NCBI GenBank assembly: GCA_042852035.1
Contig: BAAFHK010000001.1
Span: forward strand, 210,001 to 242,000
From: Candidatus Saccharimonadota bacterium
GTDB lineage: Bacteria; Patescibacteriota; Gracilibacteria; BD1-5; UBA2023
DNA: 32,000 nt
Reading direction: 5' to 3'
Each line of letters opens with the position of its first letter. Position 1 is the stretch's first letter. A program made the position numbers and the translations under genes. Below the pieces are notes generated by a model. It ran no database searches, was not told where the DNA came from, and saw only the letters and a list, made by a program, of their open reading frames with translations. Positions 1-32,000 of the stretch are shown piece by piece.

Positions 1-236
1 TCTTCGAGAAATATGTAAGACCCAATAAGAACCAAAACAGGAGTGAGAAGATATATGACTTGTGCAACACTGATATTCGTGAGTTCTATGCCGTAGGCAT
101 AGAGGATACTATTGACACCGATTCCCATACAAATAACGATAAGGAGTCCTATATGTTTCCAGGAATATTTTCTGAGCTTCGGGAGGAGCGGAAGGATGGC
201 TAGAGTTCCTATGAGGTAGCGGAAAATCGTGAGCAT
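1..236 (-). CDS. EamA/DMT-family transporter, N-terminal fragment (gene continues past the left edge)
   Basis: ATG at 236 on the minus strand, open to position 1. Translation MLTIFRYLIGTLAILPLLPKLRKYSWKHIGLLIVICMGIGVNSILYAYGIELTNISVAQVIYLLTPVLVLIGSYIFLE shows hydrophobic helices with an EamA-like pattern. Absent from the ORF track because no stop lies in the window. Confidence 0.55.
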   Translation of the reverse strand, partial: MLTIFRYLIGTLAILPLLPKLRKYSWKHIGLLIVICMGIGVNSILYAYGIELTNISVAQVIYLLTPVLVLIGSYIFLE

Positions 237-321
237 CCATGGAGAAATCTCTGTCAGAACAAATTTCGAACTAACGACTCAAAGAGTTCCGCAGATTCAG
301 AGGGTGAGAAGAAGGAGAAGT

Positions 322-756
322 TTATTCATGACTCGTATAATGCTTAATCTCTTCTTCGAGTCGATCGAAATTTTCCTCATTTTTTTCTCTGAGGAATTCT
401 TGGGCATTCTCGAAAAAGTTTATATCTTCAAATCTTGCTATCCATGTCATCTTAGTCTCATTTTTATTTATTTCTTCGATGAGTACTTCGAGTGTAAAGA
501 TCGGTGCAACATCATGTTTCATGAGGATGTGATTGGTTTCGATTTTTTGAAACATCCATTCATTGTGATAGTCGTGCCCATCAGAGTGCATGGTAAAAAT
601 CCACTTTCCTCACTCTCTAAAATCAAAAGAGTGAAAGGTGTTCGTATTTCATGCAGGTCCCCACCAACGCGCCAGTGATATCGGGTCAGAATACTTCGAA
701 AAAATAGTCTTTGCGGAATAATGGAGAGTGCGAGAGGTAGTGAGGGCATTATTCAT
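322..756 (-). CDS. SRPBCC / AHSA1 (activator of Hsp90 ATPase homolog 1-like) domain protein, 144 aa
   Basis: ATG at 756, TAA at 322-324. Two in-frame TGA read as Gly restore the family motif ...ISLARWWGPAG NTNTFHSFDFREGGKWIFTMHSDGHDYHNEWMFQKIE. The track shows only the C-terminal 89 aa (322..591). Confidence 0.85.
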
Positions 757-765
757 GGTTTATTA

Positions 766-1344
766 TTATGAATCTAAAAAATCTCAAGTTGATTTTACGC
801 TAACGAACCTTCTGATGGCAAGCAAGGCTGCCTCATGATGTTCTTTTGATACCGTTCCACAAGCATCAGAAATAACGGTGGTAAGTATATCTCTATCATG
901 AGCATCACGAGCTGTACTAGAAACTGCTAAATCGGTTGCAACACCAGTAATAATTATTTCTCAAATTCATTTTTCATCAAGATATTCTTCAAGTCAGGTT
1001 TTATAGAAGGCGCTTAACTGAGTTTTTGTGAAAGTTTTCTCATTTGGATTATATTTGAGTCCTTCTATAAAATCTACAGACCAAGTTCATTCTTGTAAAA
1101 TCTGAAGATCAGGTATCATTTTAAATCGAGGAGATACTTTTGAGCAGTTATCATAGTTTTCATGAAAGCCAATGTGAATCCATACAATTTCTTCTTTCTT
1201 TTTTCGAAATGAATCTATAAGCTTTCTCGTATTTTTTATTACTCAAAATTCCTCACAAAATCTTCCCATTCATTGTGGGGAGATTTTTCCTTCTGGATGA
1301 ACAAATTCATTGATAAAATCAATTACTAAAAGAGCTCTTTTCAT
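766..1344 (-). CDS. Isochorismatase-family cysteine hydrolase, 192 aa
   Basis: ATG at 1344, TAA at 766-768, with 7 in-frame TGA. Translation MKRALLVIDFINEF...GTWSVDF...LSAFYKTGLEEYLDEKGIGEIIITGVATDLAVSSTARDAHDRD matches the isochorismatase fold signature. No ORF is reported here under the standard code. Confidence 0.9.
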
Positions 1345-1346
1345 AG

Positions 1347-1736
1347 TTAGTTATTAGGAAAATGTTCAACAATTAATTCGTTCCCACTTCTATCATAGTA
1401 GGTGCAAGTTCATGCCTTCATATCGAGTGTCCATTTTTCAACGCCACTTTCTGCGCAGTCTCGGCAGAAGGTCATATAATCAGTTCCACCATTTTGATGG
1501 AGCTTGAGTCTTTCGATAAAAAAATCTTTTTTAATATCGAGAGAGATAAGAAGAGGCTCATATTTTCATGGAGCATTGAGGGGATCAGGATTGCCAAAAT
1601 ATACCGCCCGCCCATCGGTCACGTAAACGTCGTATGCGGTGACTCACATCCTTGTAATCTCACGAGCATAGGCAGGGAAGTCAGCTCAGGATTTTACTTT
1701 CGCATGAGCATTGATGATATCAGGGAGGGTGAACAT
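1347..1736 (-). CDS. DUF1398-family protein, 129 aa
   Basis: ATG at 1736, TAA at 1347-1349, with 4 in-frame TGA. Translation MFTLPDIINAHAKVKSGADFPAYAREITRMGVTAYDVYVTDGRAVYFG...HQNGGTDYMTFCRDCAESGVEKWTLDMKAGTCTYYDRSGNELIVEHFP resembles the DUF1398 consensus. Confidence 0.8.
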
Positions 1737-1739
1737 TGA

Positions 1740-2282
1740 TTATTTTGTTAGGAGGTATTCTCGGAGTTTTTCTATAGGTTTTATTTTGAGGTATACTTTT
1801 TTGTAGTCTTCTTCGGAGAGTTCAGAACGGATGGTCGTATATCACTCAGGGATAAAAATCCTATCCCATCCAAATCCATTATCTTTTCCTGGATGGTCTG
1901 ATATAGCCCCATTCATGCTTCATTCAAAATATTGGAGAGTATTCCCATCAAAATATCCATATGCACATCGGGCAACGGCTCCACGATTTTTACCATCGAG
2001 GAGACGACAGATTTCTTCGTAAGGGATTTCCCCGATAAAGAACTTGATAAAAGTTCCTGGAAGTCTCCTAAGGGCGACGAATTCGAGTGAGACATCCTCG
2101 ACCAATATAGGCTTTTTTACTTTTTCATAGGCTTGCCGTGCTTTATGTTCGATGATTTCTCGAAGTGAAAGGCTCTGAATTTCATCGAGCTCAATTTTTT
2201 CATGTTCGACTTTGATTCCGAGATATTTACTCAGGTATTCTGCTTTTTTCGCGTTTCCAGTTATGAAGGTGACAGTTTGCAT
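1740..2282 (-). CDS. rdgB: Non-canonical purine NTP pyrophosphatase (RdgB/HAM1 ITPase), 180 aa
   Basis: Track ORF 1920..2282 (MQTVTFITGNAKKAEY...) extends through two TGA=Gly codons to ...YFEGSMNGAISDHPGKDNGFGWDRIFIPEGYTTIRSELSEED..., ending at TAA 1740-1742. This restores the C-terminal FGWD/IF.P.G motif. Confidence 0.9.
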
Positions 2283-2291
2283 AAAATACTA

Positions 2292-2576
2292 CTATTGTGG
2301 GATTGAAGTATCTGTCTGTTTCCATCTTTCTAGGTGCGGGATTTGCCAGAGTGCCATTTTTTTGATGAACCAATTCATTTTTTCTTTTTCGAGAGCTTTT
2401 TCGACGATATTTTTCATCTCATCGAGGGTGCAATCTTTTCAGGTAAATTCTCCATCTTTGTAGCAGAGAGAGCACCATTTTGTACTATGAGATCCATCCT
2501 TTTGTGTTCCACCCTTACCAGGGTCTTTATCGAGAGGCATTCCGCATGACTGACACTGTTTATAGATTTTGTTCAT
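2292..2576 (-). CDS. Zinc-ribbon domain protein, 94 aa
   Basis: ATG at 2576, TAG at 2292-2294, one TGA=Gly. Translation MNKIYKQCQSCGMPLDKDPGKGGTQKDGSHSTKWCSLCYKDGEFTGKDCTLDEM has CxxC...CxxC spacing typical of the putative zinc-ribbon family. Confidence 0.7.
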
Positions 2577-2871: not shown

Positions 2872-4026
2872 ATGTCAGAATTTTTGTTTACTTCAGAATC
2901 AGTATCAGAATGACATCCTGACAAGGTTGCTGATCAAGTATCAGACGCTATCCTTGACGCTATCCTTACTGAAGATCCTCGTGCTCGAGTCGCGGCAGAG
3001 ACACTCGTGAATACCGGTCTTTGTGTTCTTGCGGGTGAGATTACTACCACTGCAAATATAGACTATATTGGTATAGCTCGAAAAACCATTACTGATATCG
3101 GATATAATTCGAGTGATGTATTCTACGATGGAAATGGTATAGCTGTTATGGTGTGTTACGATAAACAATCACCAGATATTGCTCAAGGTGTTGACGAATG
3201 AAAGGGGCTTGACCTCGATCAAGGAGCATGAGACCAATGACTAATGTTCTGATATGCTTGCCGAGAGACAGATACACTTATGCCAGCGCCGATCTACTAT
3301 GCGCATCGTATCATGGAACGACAGGCAGAAGTCCGAAGAACACTCCTTACATGGCTTCGTCCTGATGCGAAATCACAAGTTACCTTTCGTTATGTTGATG
3401 GCGTGCCAGTTGATATTGACACGGTTGTTGTTTCTACGCAACACCACCCAGATGTGAGCTATGACACTATTCGAGATGCTGTTATTGAGACGGTTATTAA
3501 GCCAGTTCTTCCAGCTCATATGATAACAGAGGCAACAAAGTTCCTCGTCAATCCTACAGGAAGATTTGTTGTTGGAGGACCAATGGGTGATTGTGGACTT
3601 ACGGGTCGAAAGATTATCGTGGATACTTATGGTGGTGCTGCACCACACGGAGGATGAGCATTTTCATGAAAGGATCCATCAAAAGTTGATCGAAGTGCTG
3701 CGTATGCAGGGCGCTATGTGGCAAAAAATATTGTTGCTTCAGGACTCGCAGAAAAATGTCTCGTTCAAGTTGCTTATGCTATCGGTGTTGCTAGGCCGGT
3801 TTCACTTATGGTGAATACCTATGGAACTGGAAAACTTTCTGATGAGAAAATTGCAGAGATTATTAACTGAGAGTTTGATCTCAGACCAAAAGGTATTATT
3901 GCTATGCTTGATCTTCTTAAGCCACGCTATTTGAAATCAGCTTCTTATGGGCATTTTGGAAGAAATGAAGAACTTTTCACTTGGGAAAAAACAGATAAAA
4001 TAGATGCACTTAAAAAGTACCTCTAA
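2872..4026 (+). CDS. metK: S-adenosylmethionine synthetase, 384 aa
   Basis: ATG at 2872, TAA at 4024-4026, with 8 in-frame TGA, all at conserved Gly positions. Examples: [13 protein letters not shown] (2911-2913), [40 protein letters not shown]. The track splits it into at least 4 pieces. Confidence 0.97.
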
Positions 4027-4068: not shown

Positions 4069-4100
4069 TCTACGCGATTTATTTCATCAATACACATTTT

Positions 4101-4343
4101 ATGCAGTTTGATCATCACCCATTTCTTCAGGATCACCCAGAGCTACAAGAAAAAATCCATGACCTTAAAAAATCAAATCATCATTTTGCGAAACTTCTGC
4201 GAGAGTACGAGGGACTTGATATCGAAATTGGTCGGGCTGAAAGTAATATCCCAGGATATCTCATGAGCGATATAGAGCTCACTGAGCTTAAAAAGCAAAA
4301 GATTCATCTCAAAGATGAGCTTATCGCCATGGTTCAAGTCTAA
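4101..4343 (+). CDS. DUF465 (YdcH-like) small protein, 80 aa
   Basis: Intact track ORF. Translation ...HPELQEKIHDLKKSNHHFAKLLREYEGLDIEIGRAE... is typical of DUF465. The stop TAA overlaps the next ATG (TAATG). Confidence 0.8.
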   Translation: MQFDHHPFLQDHPELQEKIHDLKKSNHHFAKLLREYEGLDIEIGRAESNIPGYLMSDIELTELKKQKIHLKDELIAMVQV

Positions 4344-5224
4344 TGCAGAAATTCTCTCTCGATTCTATCGGAACGCATCTTACTCTTTCAATCGATACTC
4401 CTCATTTGTGTGGGGAGTTATTTTCATCGATTGAGAAACGGCTCGTGCATTTTGAGAATAAATTTTCGCGGTTTAAGGCTGAAAATTGGCTCGATGAATT
4501 GAATCATCGTCGTGAATGAACACTCGATGATGATGCAAAATTTATGCTTACCTATGCACTTGACGTTTCAAAGAGGACTTGAGGATACTTTGATCCTACT
4601 GTTGGAAAACGACTCTCGGAGCTTGGGTACGGTGCAATCATGAATCATAGTCAATCTGTTATTCATAAAGGAAAACACAATGACTATCGAGAGATAGAAA
4701 TAATATGAGATATTGTTCAACTTCATGGGGATATTCTCCTTGAATTTGGTTGAGTAGGAAAAGGGTATCTTATTGATGTAATTAAGGAAATGATCGATGA
4801 GTATTATTACTCGAAAAGCATACCACTGCCACGTTACCTTATTGATTTTTGAGGTGATTTGTATGGTTATGGTGGATGGAAGGTTTGACTGGAAAATCCT
4901 CATGTTCTTGAAGAAATAATCGGAGTCCTTCTGTTGGATGACATTTTTCTTGCTTGTTCCTCAGGGTCAAAAAGAAAATGGTGAAATAACCATCACCTGA
5001 TTGACCCAAAAACGGGTGAATCAGCAACGGATGTTATAGCATCATTTATTGAGTGACCAAGTGGTATTTCAACGGATGCTTATGCAACATCTTTTTGTGT
5101 TATGCCATATGAAGAGTCTTGTGAGCTTCTCAGGGAGATTCCTTTTTTGGAAGGGGTTATTCTTGCTTCTGATGGTAGATACTTTCGCTCTTCAGGAAGT
5201 AAGAGTGAGATATTTACTGCCTAA
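4343..5224 (+). CDS. apbE: FAD:protein FMN transferase (ApbE family), 293 aa
   Basis: ATG at 4343, TAA at 5222-5224, with 10 or more in-frame TGA. Motifs: [53 protein letters not shown]. No matching plus-strand ORF appears in the track. Confidence 0.9.
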
Positions 5225-5559
5225 GCAAGCTTTGCTCCATTTGGGACTTCCTTTTCTGGAATAGCTAAAATAACGCTTCCATCTTCTCTGTAAAATCCTG
5301 TGCAGAGGAATTCACTTCGAAATGGTCCAATTTGTTTCGCTGGGAAATTCACAACTCCAATGATTTGTTTTTTTAGAAGCTCATCCTTCGTGTAGTGGGT
5401 AGTGATTTGTGCACTCGATTGTTTTACTCCGATTTCTCAGCCGAAATCAGCCCAGATTTTGTATGCCGGTTTTTTTGCTTCGGGAAAATCTTCTACACGA
5501 ATAATGGTTCCTGTCCGAAGTTCAATCGATTCGAAATCGTTCCAAGTTATTGTTTTCAT
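5221..5559 (-). CDS. tRNA-binding protein (CsaA/YgjH type), 112 aa
   Basis: ATG at 5559, TAG at 5221-5223, one TGA=Gly. Translation [53 protein letters not shown]...[18 protein letters not shown] closely resembles CsaA-type proteins. Confidence 0.9.
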
Positions 5560-5573: not shown

Positions 5574-7277
5574 TTAGTTTTCTATAAGCGTATCTATAAT
5601 AAGCTGAAGAGATGACTTTTCTTTCCATATATTCTTTGAGAGTCCGAAAATTGGTGAAATAATTTCCCCTGGATGAATGTCGTTTTTGAGAATGCTTTTA
5701 TAATTCCATAGGAGGCACTTTATTCCAGGGAGCTCAAGAAAAGAGAGGGAAAGATGTTTTTTAGAGTCTCATATTGTATCTACTCTTGTAACCGTAAGAC
5801 TATTGAGATAGAATTTTGGTTTTGGATTTCATATACCAAAGGGCCGAAAATCCTCAATCATAGCGAGTGTATCGAGCGTTATTTCATCTGGGAAAATTTC
5901 GGATTCGACTCTGAGGGTTTTTGGTGGGAGTGATCAAATATCTCCATATCTTTCATGAAATCTCTCTTGTATATGATTTTGAAATGATTCAAATACTCAT
6001 TTTTCAATAGTAAATCCTGCCGCCTGGCGATGTCCTCAATATCGTAGAAAATATTGTTTTGAATCCTCAAGTAACTCAACAAGATTACACCAATCAGGGC
6101 TTCTACAGGATGCTACAAGGTTTTCATCATGCTCACAGAGCACGATTGCAGGACGATGGTATGCTTCTGTAAGTTTTCCAGCAATGAGTCCAATAATTCC
6201 ATGCTCAAGTTTTTTATGGGAATAAAAGAGAATAGGTGAGGCATCATTTACATGCAAGAGGGCATCTTCACTAAATTCTTTTACGATTTCCTGACGTTTC
6301 AGATTGAGGGACTCCACCTCCTCAAGTCAGTCATCAACTTTTTGTTCGCTAGAAAGAAGCCATTGAAGTGCTTTTAATGGCGAATCCATGCGACCAGCAG
6401 CATTGATTCTGGGTCCGATTTGAAAGCCAATAATATCAGCTTCGCCTTCCACCTCACGATCAAGTCCCTCTATAAATTTCCGAAGAGCGCTGGTTTTGCT
6501 TTGCTTCATTTGTTTGAGTCCTAGACTTGTAATGACTCGATTTTCATCAATGAGCGGCATACAGTCAGCGACGGTCCCAAGCGAGGCTAAGTCGATATAT
6601 GATTGAAGAATATTTTCCACGACTCATGTATCTCACTGGAGTTCAGTATGATGAGAAAGACGTATTGCGAGTGCATGAAGGAGCTTAAAGGCTACCCCTG
6701 CTCAAGCAAGTCACGAAAATGGATACTTTGAGTCTTTCCGTTTTGGGTTTATGAGAGCAATAACATCTTCAGGAATTATTTCCGGAACTGCATGATGATC
6801 AGTTACGATGACGTCAATTCCGAGAGTTTTTGCATATTTTATAGGCTCAATATCTCGCGTTCCACAATCAACAGTGATAACGAGTTTTACGGATTTTTCA
6901 GAAATTTCATCAAAATGATACTTTTTGAGTCAATACCCATCATGGACTCGGTGAGGGAGCCTATAAGAAACTTCACATCAAATCTCTCAAAGAAAACGAT
7001 AAAGGAGGGCGGTTGAACTTACTCCATCAACATCGTAATCTCAGAAGATGATAATTCTTTCTTTTTTTTCTTGAGCTAAAAGGATTCTTTCTACAGCTTT
7101 TTCCATATCAGGAAGGATATACGGATCATGAAGGTGTGAAAGTTTCGGAGTAAAAAAATCTTCTCATTCTATCTTTCGGTTTTCGAGAAGGACCTGTTTT
7201 AGGGGAGTATTATCACGCTCATTCATGACAATAACACTTTGTCCACAAACTGTCGAGAGTGTCTTTGACTTTATCAT
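5574..7277 (-). CDS. recJ: Single-stranded-DNA-specific exonuclease RecJ, 567 aa (alternative start at 7226)
   Basis: Motifs: IIIFGDYDVDGVSS, TVDCGT, VTDHH, GLAGAGVAFKL, GPRINAAGRM, GGHRQAAGFTI (TGA at 6036-6038), FRPFGIGNPKPKF. TAA at 5574-5576. The 7277 ATG lies 7 nt downstream of a minus-strand TATAAT (7285-7290). The in-frame ATG at 7226 is also possible. Confidence 0.92.
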
Positions 7278-7318: not shown

Positions 7319-7678
7319 ATGTTTAAAGCCTATCTTACACTTATCACTCCACTTCAATATTTTCTTGTAATCTCTTGAGTGATAATTACAGTTGTGGCCC
7401 TTGCTCTTGCTAAAAGAGAGCGATTTAATGCACTTCATTTTCTCGTATTTCTTGCTGGAGGAGTATGACTTCTTGTGTTCTGATTCTTTCCCGGAATACT
7501 CGATCAGTTTGCTAAATTTGTCTGAGTAGCGAAATGAGCTGATGCACTTGTGTATGGAAGTGTAGTTTTTTTATTCTATTTTTCCCTGCTTTTACTCGCA
7601 AAAATTGAATCTCAACGCGAAGAACTCACTCGATTGGTTCGTGAGCTTGCTCTCCATGATATCCATGCAAAAAAATAA
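7319..7678 (+). CDS. DUF2304-family small membrane protein, 119 aa
   Basis: ATG at 7319, TAA at 7676-7678, with 5 TGA=Gly. It has three hydrophobic helices and a C-terminal ...IESQREELTRLVRELALHD tail. The 3' end overlaps the following GT2 start, the usual DUF2304-GT2 arrangement. Confidence 0.8.
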
Positions 7679-8372
7679 GTTTCTTTTTCTCATCCGTGCC
7701 TACAATGAAAGAACTCGGATAAAGGAGGTTATCGAGAGTATTTTTAATGATGGATTTCATCATATCCTTGTTGTGGATGATGGATCGACAGATGGGACAT
7801 CACAGCTCTTAAATGAAGTATTTCAGGACCAGATTTATCTGGTTAAACATCCGATTAATCGATGATGATGAGCCGCGATGGAAACATGATTTGCTTGGGT
7901 GAGAGAGAATGCCAAAAAATTCGAGATTGAATATGTTGTAACATTTGATGCTGATGGTCAGCATGATATTGCAGACATGAAGACATTTATTCATCATCTT
8001 GATAAACATTCCCATGCTGAGGTAATTTATGGCTCTCGTTTTATCATAAAAACAAATTCAAACGTGCCTTGGTACCGAAAAATGACACTCTATTGAGGCC
8101 GCATATTTACTAAGCTTCTTTCTTGAGTTAAACTGACGGATGCTCATAATGGATATCGACTCTTTCATATTTCAGTTATTGATAAGGTTCGACTCACTAT
8201 GGATGGTATGGAGTATGCGAGTGAACTTATCGAAGAGCTTGTAAAGCAGGGTTATAATATCCATGAAGTTCCCGTAAATATTCACTACGATAGCTATACT
8301 CTTGGAAAAGGACAGCGTTATGGATGAATATTGCGGATAGCGACTCGTATGATTTTTAAGAAATTTTTCTAG
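7656..8372 (+). CDS. GT2-family glycosyltransferase, 238 aa
   Basis: ATG at 7656 (or 7665), TAG at 8370-8372. Motifs: FLIRAYNE, VVDDGSTDGT, HPINR-GGG-AAMETG (three consecutive TGA, 7863-7871), TFDADGQH, AHNGYRL. Confidence 0.9.
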
Positions 8373-8377: not shown

Positions 8378-10525
<2,148 letters not shown>

Positions 10526-10542: not shown

Positions 10543-11217
10543 ATGCAAGAATTTTGGACCAATTATGCTCAAATTTATGGTGGAGCAAATGATCTTGAAG
10601 AAAAACAGAGACTTTTTGTGGCGAATTTTCTTTCTTGAAAAACTGGCAATCTTCTTGAGTTTGCAAGCGGGAATGGGAAAGTCATCTCCCATATACGAGA
10701 GGCTTGATTTAAGGGTGATATTCTCGGTGTAGACTATAATAAAGAAATGGTAGAAGTGGCAAGAACTCGACTTCCAAATGAGAAATTCATTCAGGGTGAT
10801 ATTCTTGAAGCAGAGAAATTTCTCGGAGAAATGAAGTTTGATTTTGTTATATGTCTCAATTCTCTTCATAATCTCCCGGATAAAAAAATGATCTTCAATT
10901 TTCTTGAAGCTATGAAAAAATATACAAAACAATGATGATATATTATATTTGATGTTCGTAATTCTCTTAATCCGTGAGTAAATTATTGATATTATAGAAA
11001 TCGGAAACGATGACTCCAATTTTTTACCCTTTTCCCAGATCGCATAAAACAGATTTTTAAAACCAATTTTGAGCCCATTACTGATACTTGAGTAAATTAT
11101 TCGAGCCCTCATGTAGGTGATTCTTTCGTTAAAAATTCTCTTTATAAATTTTATTTCCATCTTACGAGTTGGAAATGGTTTTCACCGTACCGTCTCTTTA
11201 TATTTCGTAAAAAATAA
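10543..11217 (+). CDS. Class I SAM-dependent methyltransferase, 224 aa
   Basis: ATG at 10543, TAA at 11215-11217. Motif I LLEFASGNGKV, then GVDYNKEMVEVAR...FDFVICLNSLHNL. The 212-aa minus-strand track ORF here is an antisense artefact. Confidence 0.85.
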
Positions 11218-15767: not shown

Positions 15768-15769
15768 TT

Positions 15770-19189: not shown

Positions 19190-19190
19190 T

Positions 19191-21730: not shown

Positions 21731-21910
21731 GAAAATACCAAAGAGAAGAAGTGCGGTATTCAGATAGATAAGAGAAGATATAATATTTGTATATCCGTCT
21801 GGGAGCTCATCATAAGGGAGGAGGAAATAGAGATCGATGAGTGGTGCAAATATGCTGCGCTTATATTCTCCTCAGAGGTTCTCAGGATCCTGTTTATCGA
21901 GAACGATTGA

Positions 21911-22369
21911 TTTATTTTCGAAAAAAACCTTTGTTTTTAGATCCCATCCAGTAACCGCATCCTCTCAGAGAGTTGGATGGGAGAGGTTTGTCATAAAGGA
22001 AAGGGCAATCTTGAAGAGCACCATAACAAGGAAAAAGAACACTCCAATCTTTCGCCATGTTCCATAAATCTTTATATCATGAAGTATTTTTTCTCATGTT
22101 TTCTTCCAGTCACTCAATAAGGGGGGTGTATCTCCTTTTTTTCTTCCCCAGAGCACAAAACCAACAAGAAGAAGACTGGTAATTGCTGGAATAAGGATAG
22201 TAATATGTTTAAAAAGAATCGTTGAGAAGATTGATTCCATCACAAAAAGTGAGAGTCCAATTCCAAATCACAATCAAAGAATTTCAAAGATATTGAGGTG
22301 TTTCGATTGTTTTGAGAGAATGAGGATGGATCCACCAGCGAGATAGGTGAGTACTATGGAGAATAGCAT
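21911..22369 (-). CDS. Membrane protein with 4 TM helices, 152 aa (possibly the N-terminal part of the downstream protein)
   Basis: ATG at 22369, the first ATG after an upstream TAA, and TAA at 21911-21913, with 4 TGA=Gly. Translation MLFSIVLTYLAGGSILILS...ILGLGFGIGLSLFVMESIF...ITILIPAITSLLLVGFVLW...IGVFFFLVMVLFKIALSFM. It is in the same frame as 20957..21910. Confidence 0.55.
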
Positions 22370-22387: not shown

Positions 22388-23020
22388 TTATTTCGTATTT
22401 TTGAAGCTACTCAAGTGAAAGAGGTCGAATGGAGGAAAGAATGGATGGAAGCAACGACTTTTTCTCGTAAAGTGTTTCTCAATCTGTTTCGAGAGTCCTG
22501 ACGCTCCATGATAATGGATTCCAGTTCCAGGTCATTCTACCATACTAAAAGTTCCCTTTAAGAGAAAACGCCCAATCTTATAGATAATATTTTCAGTTGG
22601 CATCGATACGATAAGTTTTCCACCAGGTTTTAGGATACGTCGAAGTTCGCTAAGGGGTGCCTCAAGGAATTCAAAATGCTCAAGAACGTCCAAAATAATG
22701 ATAGTATCAAAAACGTTATCTTCGAAGGTTGTTTTTGTAAGATCTTCACAAAGAAAACGAGCATTATCAACAGATAAAGTTGTAACATTCTCATTAAAAT
22801 CAATGCCAGTAATATTGGTAAAACCAGCGTTTGAGAGCATCCGCACAACACGTCCATCACCACATCCCGCATCAAGAATTGCTTCATTATGATTTTTACA
22901 TTGCTTTACTGCCCAGGTAAGGCGTTTTGTGAATATCCACTGAATGAGTGGATTTTTTGATTCATATTCTGGAACAATGGATTCAAGAGTCTGTTTTTTT
23001 TCATCGAGCAGAGTGGTCAT
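22388..23020 (-). CDS. Class I SAM-dependent methyltransferase, 210 aa
   Basis: Track ORF 22532..23020 (ILDAGCGDGRVV, FDTIIILDVLEH, LKPGGKLIVS) extends through TGA 22532-22534 by 47 codons to TAA 22388-22390. Confidence 0.85.
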
Positions 23021-23032: not shown

Positions 23033-23752
23033 TTAGTGAGTATGTTTGTTGTTTTTAGGCTTCCAAAAGCGATAGCGAAAAAGAGTAAATATGGCATCGG
23101 CACCATCATGCCATCGAATTTTTTTTCATTCTGAAATCTTTCGAGGATGATAGTGAATGCCAATCTCAGCGATTTTATGTCCCATTCGAGCCGCTTTTGC
23201 AGTCACTTCAGGGCAAAATTCGAATCTTGTACATTGTAAGTCCATATCCTTCAACATTTTTGTCTCAATGAGCTTGTAGCAGGTTGGCTCATCGGTGATG
23301 TCGAGTTTATAGAGAAGATTCGAGAGAATGCTCAGAAGCTTTCCTCCAAGAAAAAAGCTTAGATGAGAGTATCCTTCATAAAAATTCATACTTCTTGATC
23401 CATAAAGAATCGAAAGATTATTATCTATGAGGTAATGAATCATTGGGATATAGTCCTCTGGGTCGTATTCAAGATCCGCATCCTGAATAATACAGTATTC
23501 TCATGTTGCCTTTTCAAGACCAGTGCGTAATGCGCTTCCTTTGCCTTTATTTTTTTCATGATAGAGAACAATATATTTCTCTTCCATTCATTTGAGAATT
23601 TCTCTGGTTTTGTCAGTTGAAAAGTCATCAACAATGATAATCTCCTTTTCGATGTTATAGGGGAGCTTTACTTTTTCTACCTTTTCAATCAGGGTAAGAA
23701 TATTTTTTTCCTCATTATAGACGGGGATGAGTATGGAGAGTTTATTGAGCAT
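23033..23752 (-). CDS. GT2-family glycosyltransferase, GtrB / polyprenol-phosphate hexose synthase-like, 239 aa
   Basis: ATG at 23752, TAA at 23033-23035. Motifs: LSILIPVYNEEKNI, IIIVDDFSTDKT, NKGKGSALRTG, IIQDADLEYDPED, and EFCPEVTAKAARMGHKIAEIGIHY. Confidence 0.9.
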
Positions 23753-24119
23753 GAGAGGCGAACGTTACATATTTACTGGCGAGAAAGTTGAGTCCCATAA
23801 CGAGAATTTTCCCGACAATAGCAATCGCGATATAATGGTACTTGAGGATATCTACTCCTATATAGAGAATAAGGGAATAAATTCAAAATGATCCTACATT
23901 AACAAGAAAAAAGGAAGTATATTGTCTCCATATATCTTTTCTCTTGCAGTCAAAGGTATATTTTTTATGAATAAAAAAAGCAATCAGAAGCACAATATTG
24001 AAACTCATGCATGCTGAAACGAGATAATAAAACCCGAAAATATCAGTAAAGGTATAGAGAAGACCAAGGTCGAGAAGGGCTGAGAGTCAGCCGATGATGA
24101 TGAATTTTATAAGCTGCAT
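23742..24119 (-). CDS. gtrA: GtrA-family membrane protein, 125 aa
   Basis: ATG at 24119, TAA at 23742-23744, overlapping the GT2 start by 11 nt. Translation MQLIKFIIIGGLSALLDLGLLYTFTDIFGFYYLVSACMSF...NFLASKYVTF has 4 TM helices and the GtrA signature. Confidence 0.88.
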
Positions 24120-25207
24120 TACTTTTGTATTACGTAGATCTTTCAGAAATCTCCAAAAGATTGAACTTTTTCTATATTCCATCGGTATGATCGATTTTCT
24201 CCGGGATTCCAACTGAGTATTTTCGAGTTCTCATCATAGATAGGATCAACGAAACCAAAAGGAGCATCTCACCCATAGGGATTATAGGTGAAGACATATT
24301 CAAGTTCTTCAGGGTCTTTGAATTTTACATAAGGATACATATGGTACTTTCCTTCACTATCATATGGGTAAGGGGCGATAAAATTTCATTTTGATGATGA
24401 CTTTACCTGACTTCGTACAAAATCAAGAAACTGGTAAAAATCTCCATTTTTTGCCAGCCTACCATTCGACATAAAATTCGGTGCAGACGCGAAATCCTTA
24501 TACATTCTCACTTGATTGAAGCTCGAGAAGAAATCAAAGAAAATCCAAAAAAATACAAGAATAAAGAATCAAAATAAAATACTCTTTTTAAAGCGACCAT
24601 GTGACTCCTTCTCGAACATTGACCAAATCAATGCAGCAGACAAAAGAAAAAGAATGATGGGGAAGAATGCCTTGTTAATATAGACTCATCCCCACATCGG
24701 TCACTCGAGAAAGTTGATGGTACGAGGAGTGAATGGAGTATAGTGGGTTGCAGACTTAAAATTCTCTATAAATCGAGAGAGTGGATCATATTGACCAATG
24801 TTTACCTGGAAGTTTTTTCATGTAAGTGCCCCGTTTACTATGAGGATTATTGGCATCTCTTTTGGGAGTTGGCTATAGTATGGAAGAGAGCTGAAGTTAA
24901 ATTTTTTTTCTCTCTTTGTTGTATCTTCTATGTTTTCAAGACCTCAAGCAAGTATCTGGTTTCCATTCAGGAACCCATATCAAATCACTCCCTTTCCACT
25001 TATGTCACCACTAAATTCTATGAATTCATTCTTATTGAGATTTCCAAGTATTATAAAGCACTGTTGTTCACAGACAAATTCACTTCCACTGGTCTTGCTG
25101 GTAAAAGATTCGAATCACTGTTTTTGTAGAACAGTGAAATCTATATCCGCATATAGTAGGGCAGGAATAACAGACAAGACGAGCGCGATAGCTATTCGTA
25201 ATTTCAT
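24119..25207 (-). CDS. Hypothetical membrane protein, 362 aa (signal/anchor, ~150-aa domain, 2 TM, ~180-aa domain)
   Basis: ATG at 25207, TAA at 24119-24121 sharing its last A with the gtrA ATG (TAATG), with about 11 TGA=Gly. N-terminus MKLRIAIALVLSVIPALLYA. Central TMs AFFPIILFLLSAALIWSMF and ILFGFFILVFFWIFFDFF. An alternative TTG start at 25291 lies 7 nt after a GGAGG (25299-25303). No family recognised. Confidence 0.7.
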
Positions 25208-25327: not shown

Positions 25328-26458
25328 TTATTGTATTCCTATGTTTCTACTAAGAAAATCTCAGAAACTCTTTATGAAAACCTCCTTTGAAAAATTCTTC
25401 GCATGCTTTTGTATCTCTGTTTTATTCCAGGTCATTCATTCGAAAGATGTTATCGCAGTGTTCAGTTCCTCAGGAGTTTGTGTTGAGAAAAAAATACCCG
25501 TCTTTCATTCCACAATACTTTCGGTTGCCCCTCATTTTCCATAGGCAATTATCGGGGTTCCGAGTGACATCGCCTCCACAGGGACAAGTCCGAAATCCTC
25601 GAGAGGAGGGAAGAGAAATGCCTTAGCCTTTGCCATAAGTTTTATTTTTTCTTCATTGGATACTCGAAATTTCCACTCGATATTTGGTTTTGATTTTCCT
25701 TTGAGTTCATGATAGAGCTTTGTATCCGTTGCTGTGCAGAGGATGAGTTTTTTTCCATTTGTGTTGAATGCATCGACAAGTAGATCGAATCGCTTATAGG
25801 GAATGCATCGACCAAGTCCGAGATAGTATGGTTCGTGATCCTGTCATTCTGACAATTCTTCTCTATTAGGTGATACTTCCACTCATGGATAGATTACCTC
25901 TGCATCTCGATTATAGTATTTTCTGATTCTCTCTGCTGTGTTCTTCGAGTTTGCGATAAAATAGTCTACTCTCTTGCTCGCTCTATAGTCAACCCTCTTC
26001 ATCCAGTTTCTTACAAGTGGAAAAATAAATTTCACCAGAGGGTTCAGATATCCGAATTCCATCATTTCCTCATATTCCTTGGCGTGACTCCAGTAATAAC
26101 GAGTTGGAGTATGGCAGTAGCAAATATGTTTCACTCAGGCTTTCCTTTTTGAGTATCAGGCATTTTTCGATTCTGCTGAGCTCGAAGAGATGATGACATC
26201 ATATTCCGAAAGGTCGAAACTCCGAAATGCCCATGGCCTCAGAAGTCCAGCGAGTTTGTGTTTACGGTTAAAAAATGGAATATGCTGTATCCAACTCGTA
26301 TAAACCTTCCTTCCTTCCAGCATTGGATGGTTCATGTAGCAGACACTCGTAAATATATCTGCCTCAGGAAACATTTCGAGGAGATGTGATATGACGAGCT
26401 CTGCTCATCAGAAATCGATGAGCCAATCAGCAATGATGGCTATTTTTTTCCCTTTCAT
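25328..26458 (-). CDS. GT4-family glycosyltransferase, 376 aa
   Basis: ATG at 26458, TAA at 25328-25330. Translation MKGKKIAIIADWLIDFGGAELV...HICYCHTPTRYYW...FLFPPLEDFGLVPVEAMSLGTPIIAYGKGGATESIVEGKTGIFF. Confidence 0.88.
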
Positions 26459-26470: not shown

Positions 26471-27301
26471 TTACTTCCAGAGCTTATTCATGTCCCCAAT
26501 AAATGCATTATAAGATGATAAGAATGCTTTATTGAGGGATGGATTTTTTAAGTATTTCCCTACGGTTGCTGATCACCATGATATCTGTGATTTTCTTGAG
26601 TCAAAAAGAATCTTGCAGTCTGCATTCTTTTTAATTTCATTAAGGAATCATGCTAAATTATAGTATGTAAAATTCGGGTATTTTGAACATTGGAACACTA
26701 TATGAGTTGGGTTCTTTATTTGTGAATCTGTTGCAAAATCCGTGTAAGTATATATTCCTGCAATTTCTTTAGAACTTACCATATAAAAAATATTGTCTTT
26801 TATAAAAATATAATTCAATTGAAATGATGAATATTCACCATTTCATCAGCCACTAATCGTTACAATTCAGTTTTTTAATCACTTTGCTGCAACAACAAAT
26901 CTCGGAATTCATAGATAATCTCCTCTTGCATAGAATGGGTCTAGTGAATTCCAATATTTTTCAATTAATAACGCTGCTTGAGTTGTATTTTTTTTCTTCA
27001 TGTATTCTGAGAATTTCAGAAATCTTTCTTTGCTCCAATCTTTACTTTTGGATGCTAATTGGATTGAATTGTAAGAATCCATTGTTCATTGATTGAAATC
27101 AGAAATATCTTTTCGAATATCTTCCTCAAGATTTGCTATGTTATAATATTGAATATATCATGCTCAATTGGCCTGATATTGTGTTCATACCTTTTTTTGA
27201 ATTCATAAAATTTCTCAAGATATAGTTTCTTTTGCAGAAACATTATTGAATGCTACCCCGAATCATGCGATAAATGTCACTAACGCAAAGATATATTTCA
27301 T
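26471..27301 (-). CDS. Hypothetical secreted protein with N-terminal signal peptide, 276 aa
   Basis: ATG at 27301, TAA at 26471-26473, 12 nt before the GT4 ATG, with 14 in-frame TGA. Signal-like N-terminus MKYIFALVTFIAGFGVAFNNVSA. No minus-strand ORF appears here in the track. I checked the revcomp line by line and found no TAA or TAG in 276 codons of very AT-rich DNA. Confidence 0.7.
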
Positions 27302-27373: not shown

Positions 27374-28504
27374 ATGGAAAAACCAAAAATTGCTATCATC
27401 CATGACGCCTTCCTCTATCGCGGAGGGGGAGAGCGACTCGTGACTCTCATGGCGAAAACACTCAATGCGGATCTTGTGTCATGATTTTTTAGTGAGTGAA
27501 GTTTTGATCCGAGAGAACTCGGATTTAAGGGGAAGATGATCTCTCTCGGGAAGCCTGTGTTTATGAAGGGCGTTCGTCATATGGTCCTCAAATGGAGATT
27601 CTTCTGGCATGCGAAAACTCTCAGGAACTACGATATTGTAATCTTCTCATGAGATTGTCTCGGAGCGTTGAAGCACATGAGGCATGATTCGAAGAAATTA
27701 TACTATTGTCATACTCCACCTAGGTATCTCTATGACTTTAAAGAGCGATATCTCGAGAAGATGCCATGGTATATCCGACCAGTATTCTCTCTTATATTCT
27801 CATTTTTTTCGAAGATCTATGAGAGAAATCTAAGGAAATTCGACGCTATCTACACGAATTCAGAAAATGTAAAAAAGCGACTTCTCGAATATACCTGATT
27901 TCAGTCAGAGATTATCTATCCACCGACTGATACTCATTTTTTTTCTCCCTGAAAGGTACATCTCCCAGAGGAAATACCATTTTCTTCATGAGAATATTTC
28001 TTCTCTTGGGCGAGACTTTCTCCACCAAAAAGAGTTGATCTTGTTATTGATGCATTTCTTGAGCTTCCAGATAGAAAACTTATATTCTCATATGGGGCTA
28101 ATGATCCCCTAAAAGAGCAGATTCTCGAGAAAATTTCCCACTCAGAGAATATTTTCGCTGTTGAGGCACCCAGAGATGATCTTCTCCTGACTCTTATCCG
28201 ATGAGCTATCGCGAGCATATATATACCAGTAGATGAGGATTTTGGTATGTCGCCAGTCGAGAGTATGGCTTGTAGTACACCAGTCATAGGCTCAAAAGAA
28301 TGAGGTATTCTTGAGACTATTATTGATGGAGAGACAGGAAAACTTATTGATATAACGAGTCATGAGCTCGGTATTATACGACTTAAAAATACCATAGTAG
28401 ATACTCCACATGAAGATTGGTTAAGTATGAAGGAGAAATCGAGGCAGCAATCTGAGAAATTTTCTCTTGAAAAATTCCGTCTTCGATTAGAATCATTGCT
28501 ATAA
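27374..28504 (+). CDS. GT4-family glycosyltransferase, 376 aa
   Basis: ATG at 27374, TAA at 28502-28504. Translation MEKPKIAIIHDAFLYRGGGERLV...LYYCHTPPRYLYD...YIPVDEDFGMSPVESMACSTPVIGSKEGGILETIIDGETGKLI. It has the same architecture and length as 25328..26458. Confidence 0.88.
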
Positions 28505-28505: not shown

Positions 28506-29309
28506 ATGAGAATTTTATGACTTAACATCCATGAAGGAAAGTATAGAGATTTTTTGGAATACATTCGTCACCCACTTCAACCAACTCTTGTTTTTACTCC
28601 AAATCCAGAAATACTTGTGAAGGCATCCAGTGATAGTGATTTTTATAATACACTTAAGAAGGCCGATTTTCTTATTCCTGATGCAAATGGACTCTATACG
28701 GCAACTCTTATTCAAGAAGGTGCTTCGTATATTGGAGCTCTTTTTCGAACCTTTTTTCTAAAACGGAACCTCTCTAAGAGATATGGTGAGCTTATGCGCT
28801 GAAGTACTCTTACGAAGGATCTTGTAGATTTTGCTTGTGATAGTGGCGAGAGTGTACTTATGATAGATAACTATAGAATTCACAAACCGAAAAATTCTTT
28901 TGAAGAAAGAAAAATGCAAGTACAAGCCGAGCTTTCCGAGCGGTTTCAAAAAAAATTTCCAAAACTAATGATTGAGATTCTCTTTGACTGAGAGAAAACC
29001 CCAGAACAAATAGCTCAATTAATTCAGGATAAAGATATTCGATACGTTTTTTCTTGTATCTGAATGAAGGCGCAAGAAGTTCGCTTGACTGAAATATTTT
29101 CACATATTCCTGATTCATGCAAAGTATTGGGAATATGAGTTTGATCCTCTTTTGACTATCTTCTTGGGCTCCAAAAAAGAGCCCCAGTAATCTTTCAGAA
29201 AGCCTGACTCGAATGGTTTTATAGACTTCTTCAGGATCCATTTGTGAGATGGGAGCGCATTAAGAGGGCATTAGTAGATTTTCCTCGATTGGTTGAACAA
29301 TCAAAATAA
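28506..29309 (+). CDS. WecB/TagA/CpsF-family (GT26) glycosyltransferase, 267 aa
   Basis: ATG at 28506, TAA at 29307-29309. Translation ...VFTPNPEILV...ADFLIPDANGL...FSCIGMKAQE...GIGVGSSFDYLLGLQKRAPVIFQKAGLEWFYRLLQDPFVRWER. Confidence 0.9.
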
Positions 29310-29313: not shown

Positions 29314-30108
29314 CTATATGACATCATAGTACTTCAGTCCTTCGATGAATCCATCTCCATCATTTTGACTTGCTTGAAATCATCCATGCTCTTCTCAGAG
29401 TTTTTTTATTTCTGGATGTGCATTGGCAACTATGATGCTTTTGACTCCTGGTACAAAAAGTCAGACATCATTTTTTCCATCTCAGGCTACAAGTATTTCT
29501 TCGGATCTTAGGTTGTAGCGGAGCATGATCTCTTGGACGCTATTTGCTTTGCTTACACCATTCGGAACAATATCAATACAACCATCAGGATGTCGTACGA
29601 CGTAGAGCTCCCATCCGTTATCTTCGATGAGTGCTCGAAAGTATTGTTCCCATACGAGGGTTTCTTCTATATTTGTTCCTGCAGGAAAAAGAGTTATCAT
29701 GGTCTCCTTAAGTTCGGGACGATATTTCACCCACTTATTATTGAGCTTAAATTTTCTCTTAAATGAATCAAGCTTTATGGTTGAAAGAAATTCTGAAATA
29801 TCACTCACATCTCGTGCCGTATTTATTGAGGTATAGGTTACCGGCTTTACGGCAGTTCGTTGCATAAAAAGACCACCATTCTCAGCTCCGATATAATCAA
29901 AGGGCTTGAGTCACATGCCTACAGCTACTCATCGCATATAGTCTGCTCCTTTTCCAGTTGATGGTCAGATGAGTATTTTATCTTGTAGATTTCTACGAAA
30001 AACCCGAATTATTTTATCGCTTGCTGGTCATCATTGAGGCATTATAGTTCCATCCACATCAAATAAAACTGCTTTTACTGAAGCGTTTCCATTTCTTTGA
30101 GAATTCAT
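29314..30108 (-). CDS. HAD-IIB family hydrolase (Cof / sugar-phosphatase-like), 264 aa
   Basis: ATG at 30108, TAG at 29314-29316. Motif I AVLFDVDGTI, motif II GPSTGKG, motif IV AGDGKNDVGLF. Confidence 0.85.
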
Positions 30109-30225
30109 AGGAAGTGAGTGGTTATGAGTAAATAAATTATACTAAAATATTATATAGAGTCAATATATGATTTTTTCAAATCAGTATTCGATTTTTTTAA
30201 AAATTTTACTAGAATATAACTACTT

Positions 30226-31452
30226 ATGTTACAAATTCGCAGAAAAACACATACTGTCATGGTCGGAAATATCCCAATAGGAAGTGGGCACCCTATAGTA
30301 ATCCAGTCGATGACGAATACTCCGACGCGTGATATCGAGGCAACGCTGACTCAGATTATCGAACTTGCAGATACAGGATCTGAGCTCGTACGTATCACTA
30401 TCAATGATGATGCCGCAGCAGTTGCAGTCCCTGAGATTGTAAGAAAACTCCGAGAAAAGTGATACCTCACCCCGATTGTTGGAGACTTTCATTACAATGG
30501 GCATATTCTCCTCGAGAAATATCCAGAAATGGCGCGGTCTATTTCGAAATACCGAGTTAATCCAGGAAATGTCGGGAAATGAAACCGCCACGATGACAAC
30601 TATAAAAAATTTATCGAATGTGCAATAAAGTATAATCTTCCTGTTCGTATTGGAGTCAATGGATGATCCCTCGATGACGAACTTCTCTCAGCCAATATGG
30701 AAATGAATGCAAAGCGAGAGAATCCAAAATCCTGACAGGATGTATATATAGATACTATGGTAGAATCTGGTCTTATCTCTGCAAGAAAGGCAGTTGAATG
30801 GGGACTACCTGAGGATAAAATCATTATTTCAGTGAAGATGAGTGACCTTCAGTCGATGATAGGTGCCTATGAGCGAATTGCCTCACAGTGTGAGTATCCT
30901 CTCCATCTCTGACTTACAGAGGCTGGTGCGGGCACGAAGGGAATTGTCTCTTCTTCCGCAGCGCTTTCTCTATTGCTTGAGCAAGGAATAGGGGATACTA
31001 TAAGAGTTTCTCTTACTCCCGAACCTGGAGCTCCACGCACTCTCGAAGTGGAAGTTTGTAGGGATATTCTTCAGTCAATGTGATTTCGTGCTTTCGAGCC
31101 TCAGATTGTGAGTTGTCCCGGATGTGGACGAACGAGTTCTGATAAATTCCAGATTCTTGCAAAATATGTAAAAGAACGAATCAGAGAAAAAATGCCGGAA
31201 TGGAAGAAGAAATACTACAATTTTGAATCCACTCATATCGCTGTTATGTGATGTATTGTGAATGGTGTTGGGGAAGCAAAAAATGCAGATATTGGTATAT
31301 TTATCCCATGAGATGCTGAAGCTCCACAGCTTCAGATCTATGTAAAGTGAGAACACTATAAATCTCTTGAGTGAAAAGATATTCTCAGTGTTGGAAGAGA
31401 GTTTATAGGGGTAATTGAGGAATATTTTGATCAAGAATTTACTCAGAAATAA
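30226..31452 (+). CDS. ispG: 4-hydroxy-3-methylbut-2-en-1-yl diphosphate synthase (IspG/GcpE), 408 aa
   Basis: ATG at 30226, TAA at 31450-31452, with about 13 TGA=Gly. Motifs: [57 protein letters not shown] (TGA at 31249-31251). Confidence 0.95.
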
Positions 31453-31639
31453 GTCAACTCAAATCTTCTCCTACTTTTTTTGCTACCTCAGTACTTACTG
31501 TAGCACCAGAAAGAAAGGCTTGAATTTTTCGAAGCTCAATAGCATATTCCTTGCTTCAATCTCATCACTTTGTTACGATGGCTTGATAATCCTTTCAAGC
31601 TTGTAGATATCTATCGTATGCTATTTGACTTAATTCCAT
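31439..31639 (-). CDS. Small hypothetical protein, 66 aa (doubtful)
   Basis: ATG at 31639, TAA at 31439-31441, with 5 TGA=Gly. It overlaps the ispG 3' end by 14 nt. Its ATG abuts the terminator hairpin with no room for a promoter or RBS. No family recognised. Confidence 0.3.
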
Positions 31640-31640
31640 A

Positions 31641-31679
31641 ATAAAAATACGTTATAATATTCTTATAACGTATTTTTAT
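31641..31679. terminator. Perfect 17-bp inverted repeat with 5-nt loop (A/T-flanked, potentially bidirectional intrinsic terminator)
   Basis: ATAAAAATACGTTATAA (31641-31657), loop TATTC, TTATAACGTATTTTTAT (31663-31679). It lies 13 nt downstream of the DUF305 stop on the minus strand. Confidence 0.75.
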
Positions 31680-31691
31680 TATTTATCAAGT

Positions 31692-32000
31692 TTAATAGTA
31701 TTTTTCACATCATAGCATAGTTGGCATTTCGCGACAATGCTCTCGCATCATCTCATCTTGAGGATCTATGCTAGTTCCGCTCGATATAGTTCCACTATTT
31801 GTATAGCCCCATTCTCTGAGCCATTTCTCCATTTGATCGATTTCATTTGCTTGTGCTGCGATGATATCAGCACCAAGTTTTTTGAGTTCGTCGTGTTTTG
31901 CTCCAGTAAGATATTTTGCCATATCGATAGCTCATTGATGATGGGGAATCATCGCAATAAGAAAGGCCTTATCAAGATCATCTCAAGTTTTTCCTTCGAG
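31692..32000 (-). CDS. DUF305-family protein, C-terminal fragment (gene starts beyond the right edge)
   Basis: Open from 32000 to TAA 31692-31694. Translation ...DLDKAFLIAMIPHHQGAIDMAKYLTGAKHDELKKLGADIIAAQANEIDQMEKWLREWGY is the DUF305 HH motif repeat. The track end at 31710 is a TGA=Gly codon. Confidence 0.85.

Follow-up and report, generated by a model that had tools for sequence, protein, structure and literature searches.

A change in which UGA turns from a stop into a glycine codon (genetic code 25) is said to have been described in 2013, by Campbell and by Rinke, for the Gracilibacteria (BD1-5) and the Absconditabacteria (SR1). In code 4, that of the Mycoplasmatales, the Entomoplasmatales and some insect endosymbionts, the same codon has also passed from stop to sense in small, AT-rich, host-dependent bacteria, there with tryptophan as its amino acid, and the loss of release factor 2 (RF2, the product of prfB) is a proposed route to that code. 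For code 25 there is proteomic confirmation of UGA = Gly from a BD1-5 enrichment (Hanke 2014, PMC4032931), and an extended version has been reported in which CGA and CGG are read as Trp in Absconditabacteria, as is CGG in some Gracilibacteria (PMC8629427). Here we analyse a stretch of 32,000 bp (hereafter “the window”; 36.8% GC, a small part of a genome of ~1.3 Mb) for which a preliminary description, made from the sequence alone, had proposed that UGA is a glycine codon throughout. This proposal is almost certainly right: the organism uses code 25, with UGA as glycine, UGG as the sole tryptophan codon and UAA and UAG as the only stops, and the reading-frame, column, score and codon-exchange tests presented below all favour table 25.

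Judging from its protein matches, the window organism is a Gracilibacteria-type Patescibacterium, the lineage that the preliminary description had named. With TGA translated as Gly, four of its genes are identical to the NCBI proteins GAB0174343, GAB0174356, GAB0174361 and GAB0174370, which belong to the metagenome-assembled genome (MAG) HHAS10, “Candidatus Altimarinota bacterium” (locus tags HHAS10_02xxx); the translations of these four genes with Trp at TGA are absent from the protein collection that was searched. The taxid 363464, that of Ca. Altimarinota, is the taxon that Shulgina & Eddy 2021 (PMC8629427) enter as Gracilibacteria, with “UGA Stop->G”. HHAS10 itself is a MAG from activated sludge, placed in the GTDB class JAEDAM01 and described as an episymbiont of Zoogloea (PMC9530719, PMC11393006), and Fujii et al. 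2024 have already reported that Codetta gives UGA -> Gly in JAEDAM01 “including HHAS10” (PMC11393006). In the tree of that study the MAGs of the GTDB class Gracilibacteria retain UGA as a stop, whereas JAEDAM01 has Gly (PMC11393006), and two “Gracilibacteria” of Shulgina & Eddy 2021 possess RF2 and no tRNA(UCA) (PMC8629427); the reassignment thus appears to be unevenly spread across these taxa. Compared with the code 25 of the Gracilibacteria and SR1, the window has the same in-frame UGA codons on glycine columns, the same use of UGG for Trp and of UAA and UAG as stops, the same low GC content and the same phylum-level taxon. The code is identical, although the organism belongs to JAEDAM01, a class split off from the Gracilibacteria.

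The effect of TGA on the open reading frames (ORFs) is conspicuous. Under table 11 only 4 stop-to-stop ORFs reach 200 aa, against 37 with TGA as sense, and the ORFs that reach 150 aa add up to 1,603 aa under table 11 and to 15,972 aa once TGA is sense; the corresponding controls, in which TAG or TAA was made sense instead, gave 2,778 and 3,392 aa, respectively. Long ORFs come back only when TGA leaves the stop set. Greedy non-overlapping calling gave the same picture, with 62 ORFs (median 84.5 aa, coverage 57%) under table 11 and 35 ORFs (median 255 aa, coverage 93%) with TGA as sense, so the standard code does break the genes and a sense TGA does fuse them, as had been claimed. Four greedy ORFs (328-777 on the plus strand, 2330-2617 and 4079-4330 on the minus strand, and 23727-24137 on the plus strand) were spurious antisense or wrong-frame calls, for which Pfam-supported genes were substituted. 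The refined set comprises 37 genes, rather than the ~39 of the preliminary description, which occupy 95% of the window and contain 237 in-frame TGA among 10,175 codons. Apart from 1-321 and 31453-31691, no sizeable stretch lacks a supported gene; a 66-aa ORF at 31439-31639 (minus strand, 5 TGA) has no Pfam match.

Seen through table 11 the window is a field of broken genes, and its in-frame TGA triplets might then be pseudogene lesions, sequencing errors or sites of programmed readthrough in an organism with the standard code. The chance of this is negligible. The 237 in-frame TGA of the 37 genes stand against not a single TAA or TAG (232, 0 and 0, respectively, in the 32 Pfam-supported models), the catalytic motifs are intact, many of the Pfam matches are full length and the same TGA pattern recurs in independent assemblies from other samples. 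In addition, we have compared the window codon by codon with L001, a syntenic contig from a separate sequencing run that provides 8 orthologue pairs with proteins 51-91% identical; this comparison is made at the DNA level and is independent of annotation. Window TGA codons lie opposite TGA in 32 cases, GGN in 20 and TGG in 1, and the TGA codons of L001 lie opposite TGA in 32 cases, GGN in 23 and TGG in none. Positions that are TGA in both organisms at such protein divergence, with the others being GGN, are not what lesions or errors would leave, and the reading of these TGA as pseudogene lesions or sequencing errors is refuted. In its exchanges, with GGN and almost never with TGG, TGA behaves as synonymous with GGN rather than with TGG.

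Which amino acid UGA encodes is a separate matter, since code 4 restores the identical long ORFs and the ORF test is therefore blind to the choice between Gly and Trp. To avoid circularity, TGA was masked as X before comparison with protein families. In this form 27 models of the first gene calls match Pfam, many of them over their full length and across the TGA positions, including MetK (three domains), IspG, RecJ, ApbE, the GalE-GT4 fusion and WbqC. The preliminary description had placed TGA codons at six sites in glycine motifs, and on inspection each proved to be a TGA codon in the peptide context claimed. The genes concerned are listed here.

2872-4026, plus strand: MetK (S-adenosylmethionine synthetase), 384 aa, 8 TGA; three Pfam domains at full length, PDB alignments; the TGA at 2911-2913 is the Gly of SESVSE-G-HPDK.
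4343-5224, plus strand: ApbE flavin transferase, 293 aa, 8 TGA; PF02424, E = 7e-35, profile positions 2-258 of 266.
5574-7277, minus strand: RecJ exonuclease, 567 aa, 15 TGA; DHH, DHHA1 and RecJ_OB domains, PDB alignments; the TGA at 6036-6038 (minus strand) lies in YGGHRQAAG.
7656-8372, plus strand: GT2 glycosyltransferase, 238 aa, 7 TGA, stop TAG; PF00535, E = 1e-20, codons checked; a triple TGATGATGA at 7863-7871 lies in NRGGGAA.
8378-10525, plus strand: fusion of a GalE-like epimerase with a GT4 glycosyltransferase, 715 aa, 18 TGA; PF01370, PF13439 and PF00534; TGATGA at 8405-8410 lies in LITGGLGYIG (GxxGxxG motif).
14742-15767, plus strand: P-loop protein, 341 aa, 6 TGA; Walker A SGLGGSGKST, with 15252-15263 reading TGA TTG TGA TGA (three TGA-encoded Gly); no Pfam match, and a weak local similarity to HprK-related kinase A/B that is under the curated cut-off.
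19143-19865, plus strand: WbqC-family protein, 240 aa, 11 TGA, stop TAG; PF08889.
30226-31452, plus strand: IspG/GcpE, 408 aa, 10 TGA; PF04551; the Gly translation is GAB0174370.1; the TGA at 31249-31251 lies in AVMGCIVNG.

Three of these proteins were compared with large sets of homologues. Among 89 standard-code MetK sequences from Betaproteobacteria (72-74% identical), Gly fills 7 of the 8 TGA columns to 100%, the eighth being variable and mostly Glu, and for IspG Gly dominates 9 of the 10 TGA columns in 65 standard-code references of no more than 58% identity. The RecJ homologues retrieved by a large protein search were, where named, Gracilibacteria-type (all 120 matches with a source name, among the matches listed, are from Gracilibacteria or Altimarinota) and hence not independent, so that 55 standard-code RecJ ORFs from genome contigs were used instead. 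In these the columns of the TGA at aa 79, 116, 192 and 414 have Gly in 53-55 of the 55 orthologues, and of the other TGA columns Gly is the commonest residue in several and the rest are variable. When the MetK, IspG and RecJ columns conserved at 80% or more are pooled, Gly holds 20 of the 21 and Ala the remaining one, with no Trp column among them (P ~1e-18 for Gly against its background of ~11%). The claim that TGA falls on invariant glycines of conserved families is thus upheld. Alignment with the best PDB match gives Gly at 7 of 8 TGA positions in MetK, 9 of 10 in IspG (with Thermus 4s38), 6 of 13 in RecJ and 6 of 9 in the GalE domain (with 8wov), for an overall 28 Gly and no Trp at 40 positions.

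Profile scores lead to the same amino acid. With Gly rather than Trp at TGA the Pfam scores are 526.6 against 496.5 bits for MetK, 366.0 against 340.3 for IspG (PF04551) and 199.8 against 169.0 for RecJ, and WbqC (PF08889) scores 238.9 with Gly, 223.3 with X and 206.9 with Trp; the gain of Gly over Trp is ~119 bits over 44 codons, and each model tested favours Gly. The comparison of tables 11, 4 and 25 that had been called for therefore comes out for table 25, table 11 fragmenting the genes and table 4 being outscored. Code 4, the Mycoplasma-type meaning also found in some insect endosymbionts, can further point to public gene calls for some close relatives, which carry Trp at TGA positions, yet there the Trp of the databases sits on columns in which standard-code orthologues have 100% Gly. 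Of the 21 conserved TGA columns none is Trp and 20 are Gly. Code 4 would also sacrifice the ~119 bits, leave the exchange of TGA with GGN (TGG only once in 64 cases) without a reason, raise the Trp content of the 32 Pfam-supported models from 1.1% (TGG alone) to an implausible 3.5%, and predict translations that, for the four genes checked, are absent from NCBI. Code 4 is refuted by these tests of columns, scores, codon exchange and composition, with only a minute residual probability. The preliminary description had argued in this sense from TGG-encoded Trp; indeed, the peptide LARWWGPAG with such residues is present in the AHSA1/SRPBCC gene at 322-756 (minus strand), TGG falls on Trp columns in 3 of 3 cases and it faces TGG in L001 in 25 of 26. 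Taken together, in-frame TGA on glycine columns and the exchange with GGN make UGA a glycine sense codon.

As a glycine codon TGA is far from rare. It is the commonest Gly codon of the 37 genes (237 of 685, 35%) and accounts for 2.3% of all codons, and its inclusion brings the Gly content of the 32 Pfam-supported models from 4.4% to a normal 6.8%. The TGA share of the Gly codons lies between 0 of 11 (gene 11220-11876) and 14 of 21 (gene 26471-27301), is heterogeneous among genes (chi-square p = 0.005) and is anticorrelated with gene GC (rho = -0.47, p = 0.005). TGA being the most AT-rich Gly codon, this increase as gene GC falls fits AT mutational pressure, which probably keeps TGA frequent. 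A recent horizontal transfer of the FemAB-like gene that has no TGA (11220-11876) was considered and rejected: its L001 orthologue has 3 TGA, so that the zero reflects drift and AT pressure, not recent transfer.

The remaining codons show no further departure from the standard code. When codons were tabulated against the MetK and IspG columns in the manner of Codetta, all of them fell on their standard amino acids. CGA falls on Arg columns in 8 of 8 cases and swaps with Arg synonyms; the 23 CGG codons fall on R, K or Q columns and swap with CGT, CGA, AGG and AGA in the relative; their usage per 10,000 codons is 122 and 24, respectively. Neither the MetK and IspG columns nor the L001 exchanges hold any sign of a Trp reading of CGA or CGG. 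By these comparisons CGA, CGG and AGG remain arginine codons and the code is plain table 25. It shares UGA = Gly with the extended Absconditabacteria code and differs from it in that CGA and CGG do not fall on Trp columns here.

From the literature on the lineage, UGA would be decoded by a dedicated tRNA-Gly(UCA) with the GlyRS identity elements G1:C72, C2:G71, G3:C70 and U73, and prfB would have been lost, so that no termination at UGA would occur. The rules for calling such tRNAs (G1:C72, C2:G71, G3:C70, U73), and the RF2 status, are covered in PMC8629427, and prfB was undetected in any BD1-5 genome (PMC6851277). Scanning metagenome contigs with a structured pattern, we recovered tRNAs 71-77 nt long that combine a UCA anticodon with the Gly identity elements. 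One contig (L107, 25% GC) has a tRNA(UCA) at 1549-1622, ~70 bp from a sigma-70-family gene (319-1476) with 7 in-frame TGA, one of which, on our reading against the known RpoD sequence, is the conserved region-4 “LEE[IV]G” glycine. This contig links the decoder tRNA physically to recoded genes, in a different organism.

The same scan brought several side observations. On L118 a tRNA(UCA) at 1521-1595 adjoins a phage-type RNA ligase gene (1951-2997; PHA02142/RNA_ligase) with 12 in-frame TGA, and the same tRNA is found at 323-397 of L088; the tRNAs of L107, L118 and L088 are 74-75 nt long. L118 could come from a phage that infects a code-25 host and brings the decoder tRNA with it. On another contig (L123, 31% GC) a Gly-type UCA tRNA at 8966-9041 lies inside an array of 11 tRNAs, and the genes of this contig have no TGA-as-sense signature; this tRNA could act as a suppressor of UGA, represent a variant tRNA-Gly(UCC) or stem from faulty assembly. 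Finally, the BNJS, BNJT and BNJU contigs (L086, L092, L098-L105, L113, L115, L117, L119-L121, L124 and L126) yielded many tRNAs with “anticodons” of 2 or 4 bases (tc, tttt, taaa, tggg). These were discarded, as they look like homopolymer indel errors of long-read assemblies that affect tRNA-Gly(UCC) (for example, TTCCAA -> TTCAA) and its neighbours. A “TAA-as-sense” signal in L103 was likewise set aside, as it came from overlapping low-complexity ORFs in AT-rich DNA.

The label “SeC” that ARAGORN gives to tRNAs with a UCA anticodon might suggest that UGA stands for selenocysteine, and one conserved RecJ column under TGA that is Ala might speak for some other residue (Ala, Ser or Cys). Either is exceedingly improbable. 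The conserved columns are Gly and not Cys or Sec; at 2.3% of codons and in nearly every gene, UGA is far too frequent for selenocysteine, a judgement made without a search for selenocysteine insertion sequence (SECIS) elements; and the UCA tRNAs found are 71-77 nt long with Gly identity elements, not of the ~90-nt selenocysteine type. The selenocysteine reading is refuted by the column tabulation and by this frequency.

There are nevertheless some points that weigh against UGA = Gly, or at least against its being the whole account. The Ala column of RecJ is one. About one third of the TGA codons lie in variable columns in which the references have E, K, A, L and others; such positions are to be expected for any codon, and the assignment is consequently statistical at the level of the single site. 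Neither tRNA genes nor Rfam matches were found in the 32 kb of the window, and a tRNA(UCA) was not found in the ~250 kb sampled from relatives. The preliminary description had also held that all genes end in TAA or TAG and never in TGA; the count agrees (31 TAA and 6 TAG, UGA not being used as a stop in any of the 37 genes), but the argument is partly circular once TGA has been counted as sense. Ambiguous decoding, in the form of low-level termination at UGA or misreading of UGG by U34 wobble, is compatible with the sequence data.

These last points lead to the notion of a dual meaning, with UGA mostly Gly while also terminating some genes or being ambiguous by context. It is compatible with the DNA data taken alone, the wobble ambiguity of U34 is discussed in the literature (PMC8629427), and the use of TGA does vary among genes (p = 0.005). 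However, that heterogeneity is explained by gene GC, the gene without TGA has 3 TGA in the relative, and prfB is reported absent in the lineage (PMC6851277). Moreover, the C-termini and their TAA or TAG stops agree with those of the L001 orthologues, which is independent support for the stop assignment. No feature of the window suggests a dual meaning, and we consider it very unlikely; code 25, with a UGA that means glycine, is the reading retained for the genes that remain to be described.

The genes that precede the glycosylation cluster, apart from MetK, ApbE and RecJ given above, are the following.

322-756, minus strand: AHSA1/SRPBCC, 144 aa, 2 TGA, stop TAA; PF08327, E = 1e-10 with X at TGA.
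766-1344, minus strand: isochorismatase family, 192 aa, 7 TGA, stop TAA; PF00857, E = 1e-36, full length with X at TGA.
1347-1736, minus strand: DUF1398 gene, 129 aa, 4 TGA; PF07166, E = 2e-30; orthologue in L001.
1740-2282, minus strand: Ham1/ITPase, 180 aa, 2 TGA; PF01725, E = 2e-30.
2292-2576, minus strand: Zn-ribbon gene, 94 aa, 1 TGA, stop TAG; PF12674, E = 6e-22; same gene in L001.
4101-4343, plus strand: DUF465 gene, 80 aa, no TGA; PF04325, E = 9e-13; syntenic gene in L001; replaces an antisense ORF.
5221-5559, minus strand: tRNA-binding-domain protein, 112 aa, 1 TGA, stop TAG; PF01588; the Gly translation is GAB0174343.1.

Almost the entire span 7319-30108 is one large cell-envelope glycosylation cluster. 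It encodes at least nine glycosyltransferases (GT2, GT4/GT1 and WecG/TagA) and four S-adenosylmethionine (SAM) methyltransferases, along with WbqC, a PIG-L deacetylase, GtrA, a FemAB/GNAT-like protein and a HAD phosphatase, and ORFs without a family are interspersed in it (14742-17826, 20957-22369, 24119-25207 and 26471-27301). The GalE-GT4 fusion is kept in L001 as an ORF of 717 aa. The members not yet listed, and the gene that is cut by the end of the window, are as follows.

7319-7678, plus strand: DUF2304 membrane protein, 119 aa, 5 TGA; PF10066, E = 8e-19.
10543-11217, plus strand: SAM methyltransferase, 224 aa, 8 TGA; Methyltransf_31/25/11.
11220-11876, plus strand: FemAB/GNAT-like protein, 218 aa, 11 Gly codons, none of them TGA; PF02388 and PF13480 matched weakly.
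11878-12927, plus strand: GT1-family glycosyltransferase, 349 aa, 9 TGA; PF00534.
12937-13635, plus strand: SAM methyltransferase, 232 aa, 9 TGA, one of them in the DLGCGxG motif; Methyltransf_25/11.
13626-14735, plus strand: GT1-family glycosyltransferase, 369 aa, 6 TGA; PF00534.
15770-16753, plus strand: ORF of 327 aa, 6 TGA, intact only with TGA as sense; no Pfam or NCBIfam match.
16741-17826, plus strand: ORF of 361 aa, 6 TGA, intact only with TGA as sense; no Pfam or NCBIfam match.
17846-18514, plus strand: SAM methyltransferase, 222 aa, 1 TGA; PF08241; the Gly translation is GAB0174356.1.
18575-19189, plus strand: PIG-L family deacetylase, 204 aa, 5 TGA, stop TAG; PF02585, E = 4e-24.
19855-20955, minus strand: GT4/GT1 glycosyltransferase, 366 aa, 10 TGA; PF00534 and PF13439.
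20957-22369, minus strand: polytopic membrane protein, 470 aa, 5 TGA, intact only with TGA as sense; no family match.
22388-23020, minus strand: SAM methyltransferase, 210 aa, 1 TGA; PF08241; the Gly translation is GAB0174361.1.
23033-23752, minus strand: GT2 glycosyltransferase (DPM1-like), 239 aa, 3 TGA; PF00535, E = 2e-31.
23742-24119, minus strand: GtrA-family membrane protein, 125 aa, 2 TGA; PF04138, E = 2e-21.
24119-25207, minus strand: membrane or secreted protein, 362 aa, 10 TGA; no family match.
25328-26458, minus strand: GT4/GT1 glycosyltransferase, 376 aa, 10 TGA; PF00534 and PF13439.
26471-27301, minus strand: secreted protein without a family, 276 aa, 14 TGA; top TGA share and lowest GC (29.7%).
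27374-28504, plus strand: GT4/GT1 glycosyltransferase, 376 aa, 8 TGA; PF00534 and PF13439.
28506-29309, plus strand: WecG/TagA-family glycosyltransferase, 267 aa, 7 TGA; PF03808.
29314-30108, minus strand: HAD-family phosphatase, 264 aa, 9 TGA, stop TAG; PF08282 and PF05116.
31692-32000, minus strand: 3' part of a DUF305 gene that leaves the window, 3 TGA; PF03713.

The neighbourhood formed by IspG and the DUF305 gene recurs in another relative (L128).

The MetK gene may have a history of its own. Its nearest relatives form a tight clade of Patescibacteria at 80-90% identity; beyond the Patescibacteria the nearest are Betaproteobacteria at 72-74% (Leeia, Vogesella, Oxalobacteraceae and Burkholderiales), and the two best PDB chains, which we take to be those of Neisseria and Burkholderia, come ahead of what are presumably the E. 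coli MetK chains. This order of relatedness suggests an old transfer from the Betaproteobacteria, to which the reported host Zoogloea also belongs. It is conceivable, though on balance rather doubtful, that the MetK of this clade was captured from a betaproteobacterium after the code had changed, in which case the seven invariant glycines would have undergone a “naturalisation” from GGN to TGA. If so, TGA density could be a possible clock for host-to-episymbiont transfers in code-25 bacteria.

The choice of table has tangible consequences, as table 11 shatters the genes of such DNA and under table 4 their catalytic glycines turn into Trp. Both kinds of product are in circulation. The methyltransferase of 22388-23020 (210 aa) is present in public data as a fragment of 162 aa, truncated by table 11, and some Logan, ENA and JGI gene calls of MetK and IspG relatives have Trp in columns where standard-code orthologues show 100% Gly, which marks them as code-4 mistranslations of UGA = Gly genomes. 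Searches are affected as well: only ~3 to 5 of the best 80 RecJ loci come from Gracilibacteria, Absconditabacteria or other Patescibacteria, the tblastn step counting an in-frame TGA as a stop and hence under-ranking code-25 relatives.

UGA = Gly is thus correct for this organism and already known, since Fujii et al. 2024 reported it for HHAS10 itself, and the finding is not new; the NCBI record of HHAS10 is already translated with Gly. With the reassignment known for the lineage since 2013, supported by proteomics in 2014 and published for HHAS10 in 2024, the scientific gain is nil. What value remains is practical, in that wrong table-11 and table-4 gene calls for this lineage are visible in public collections.

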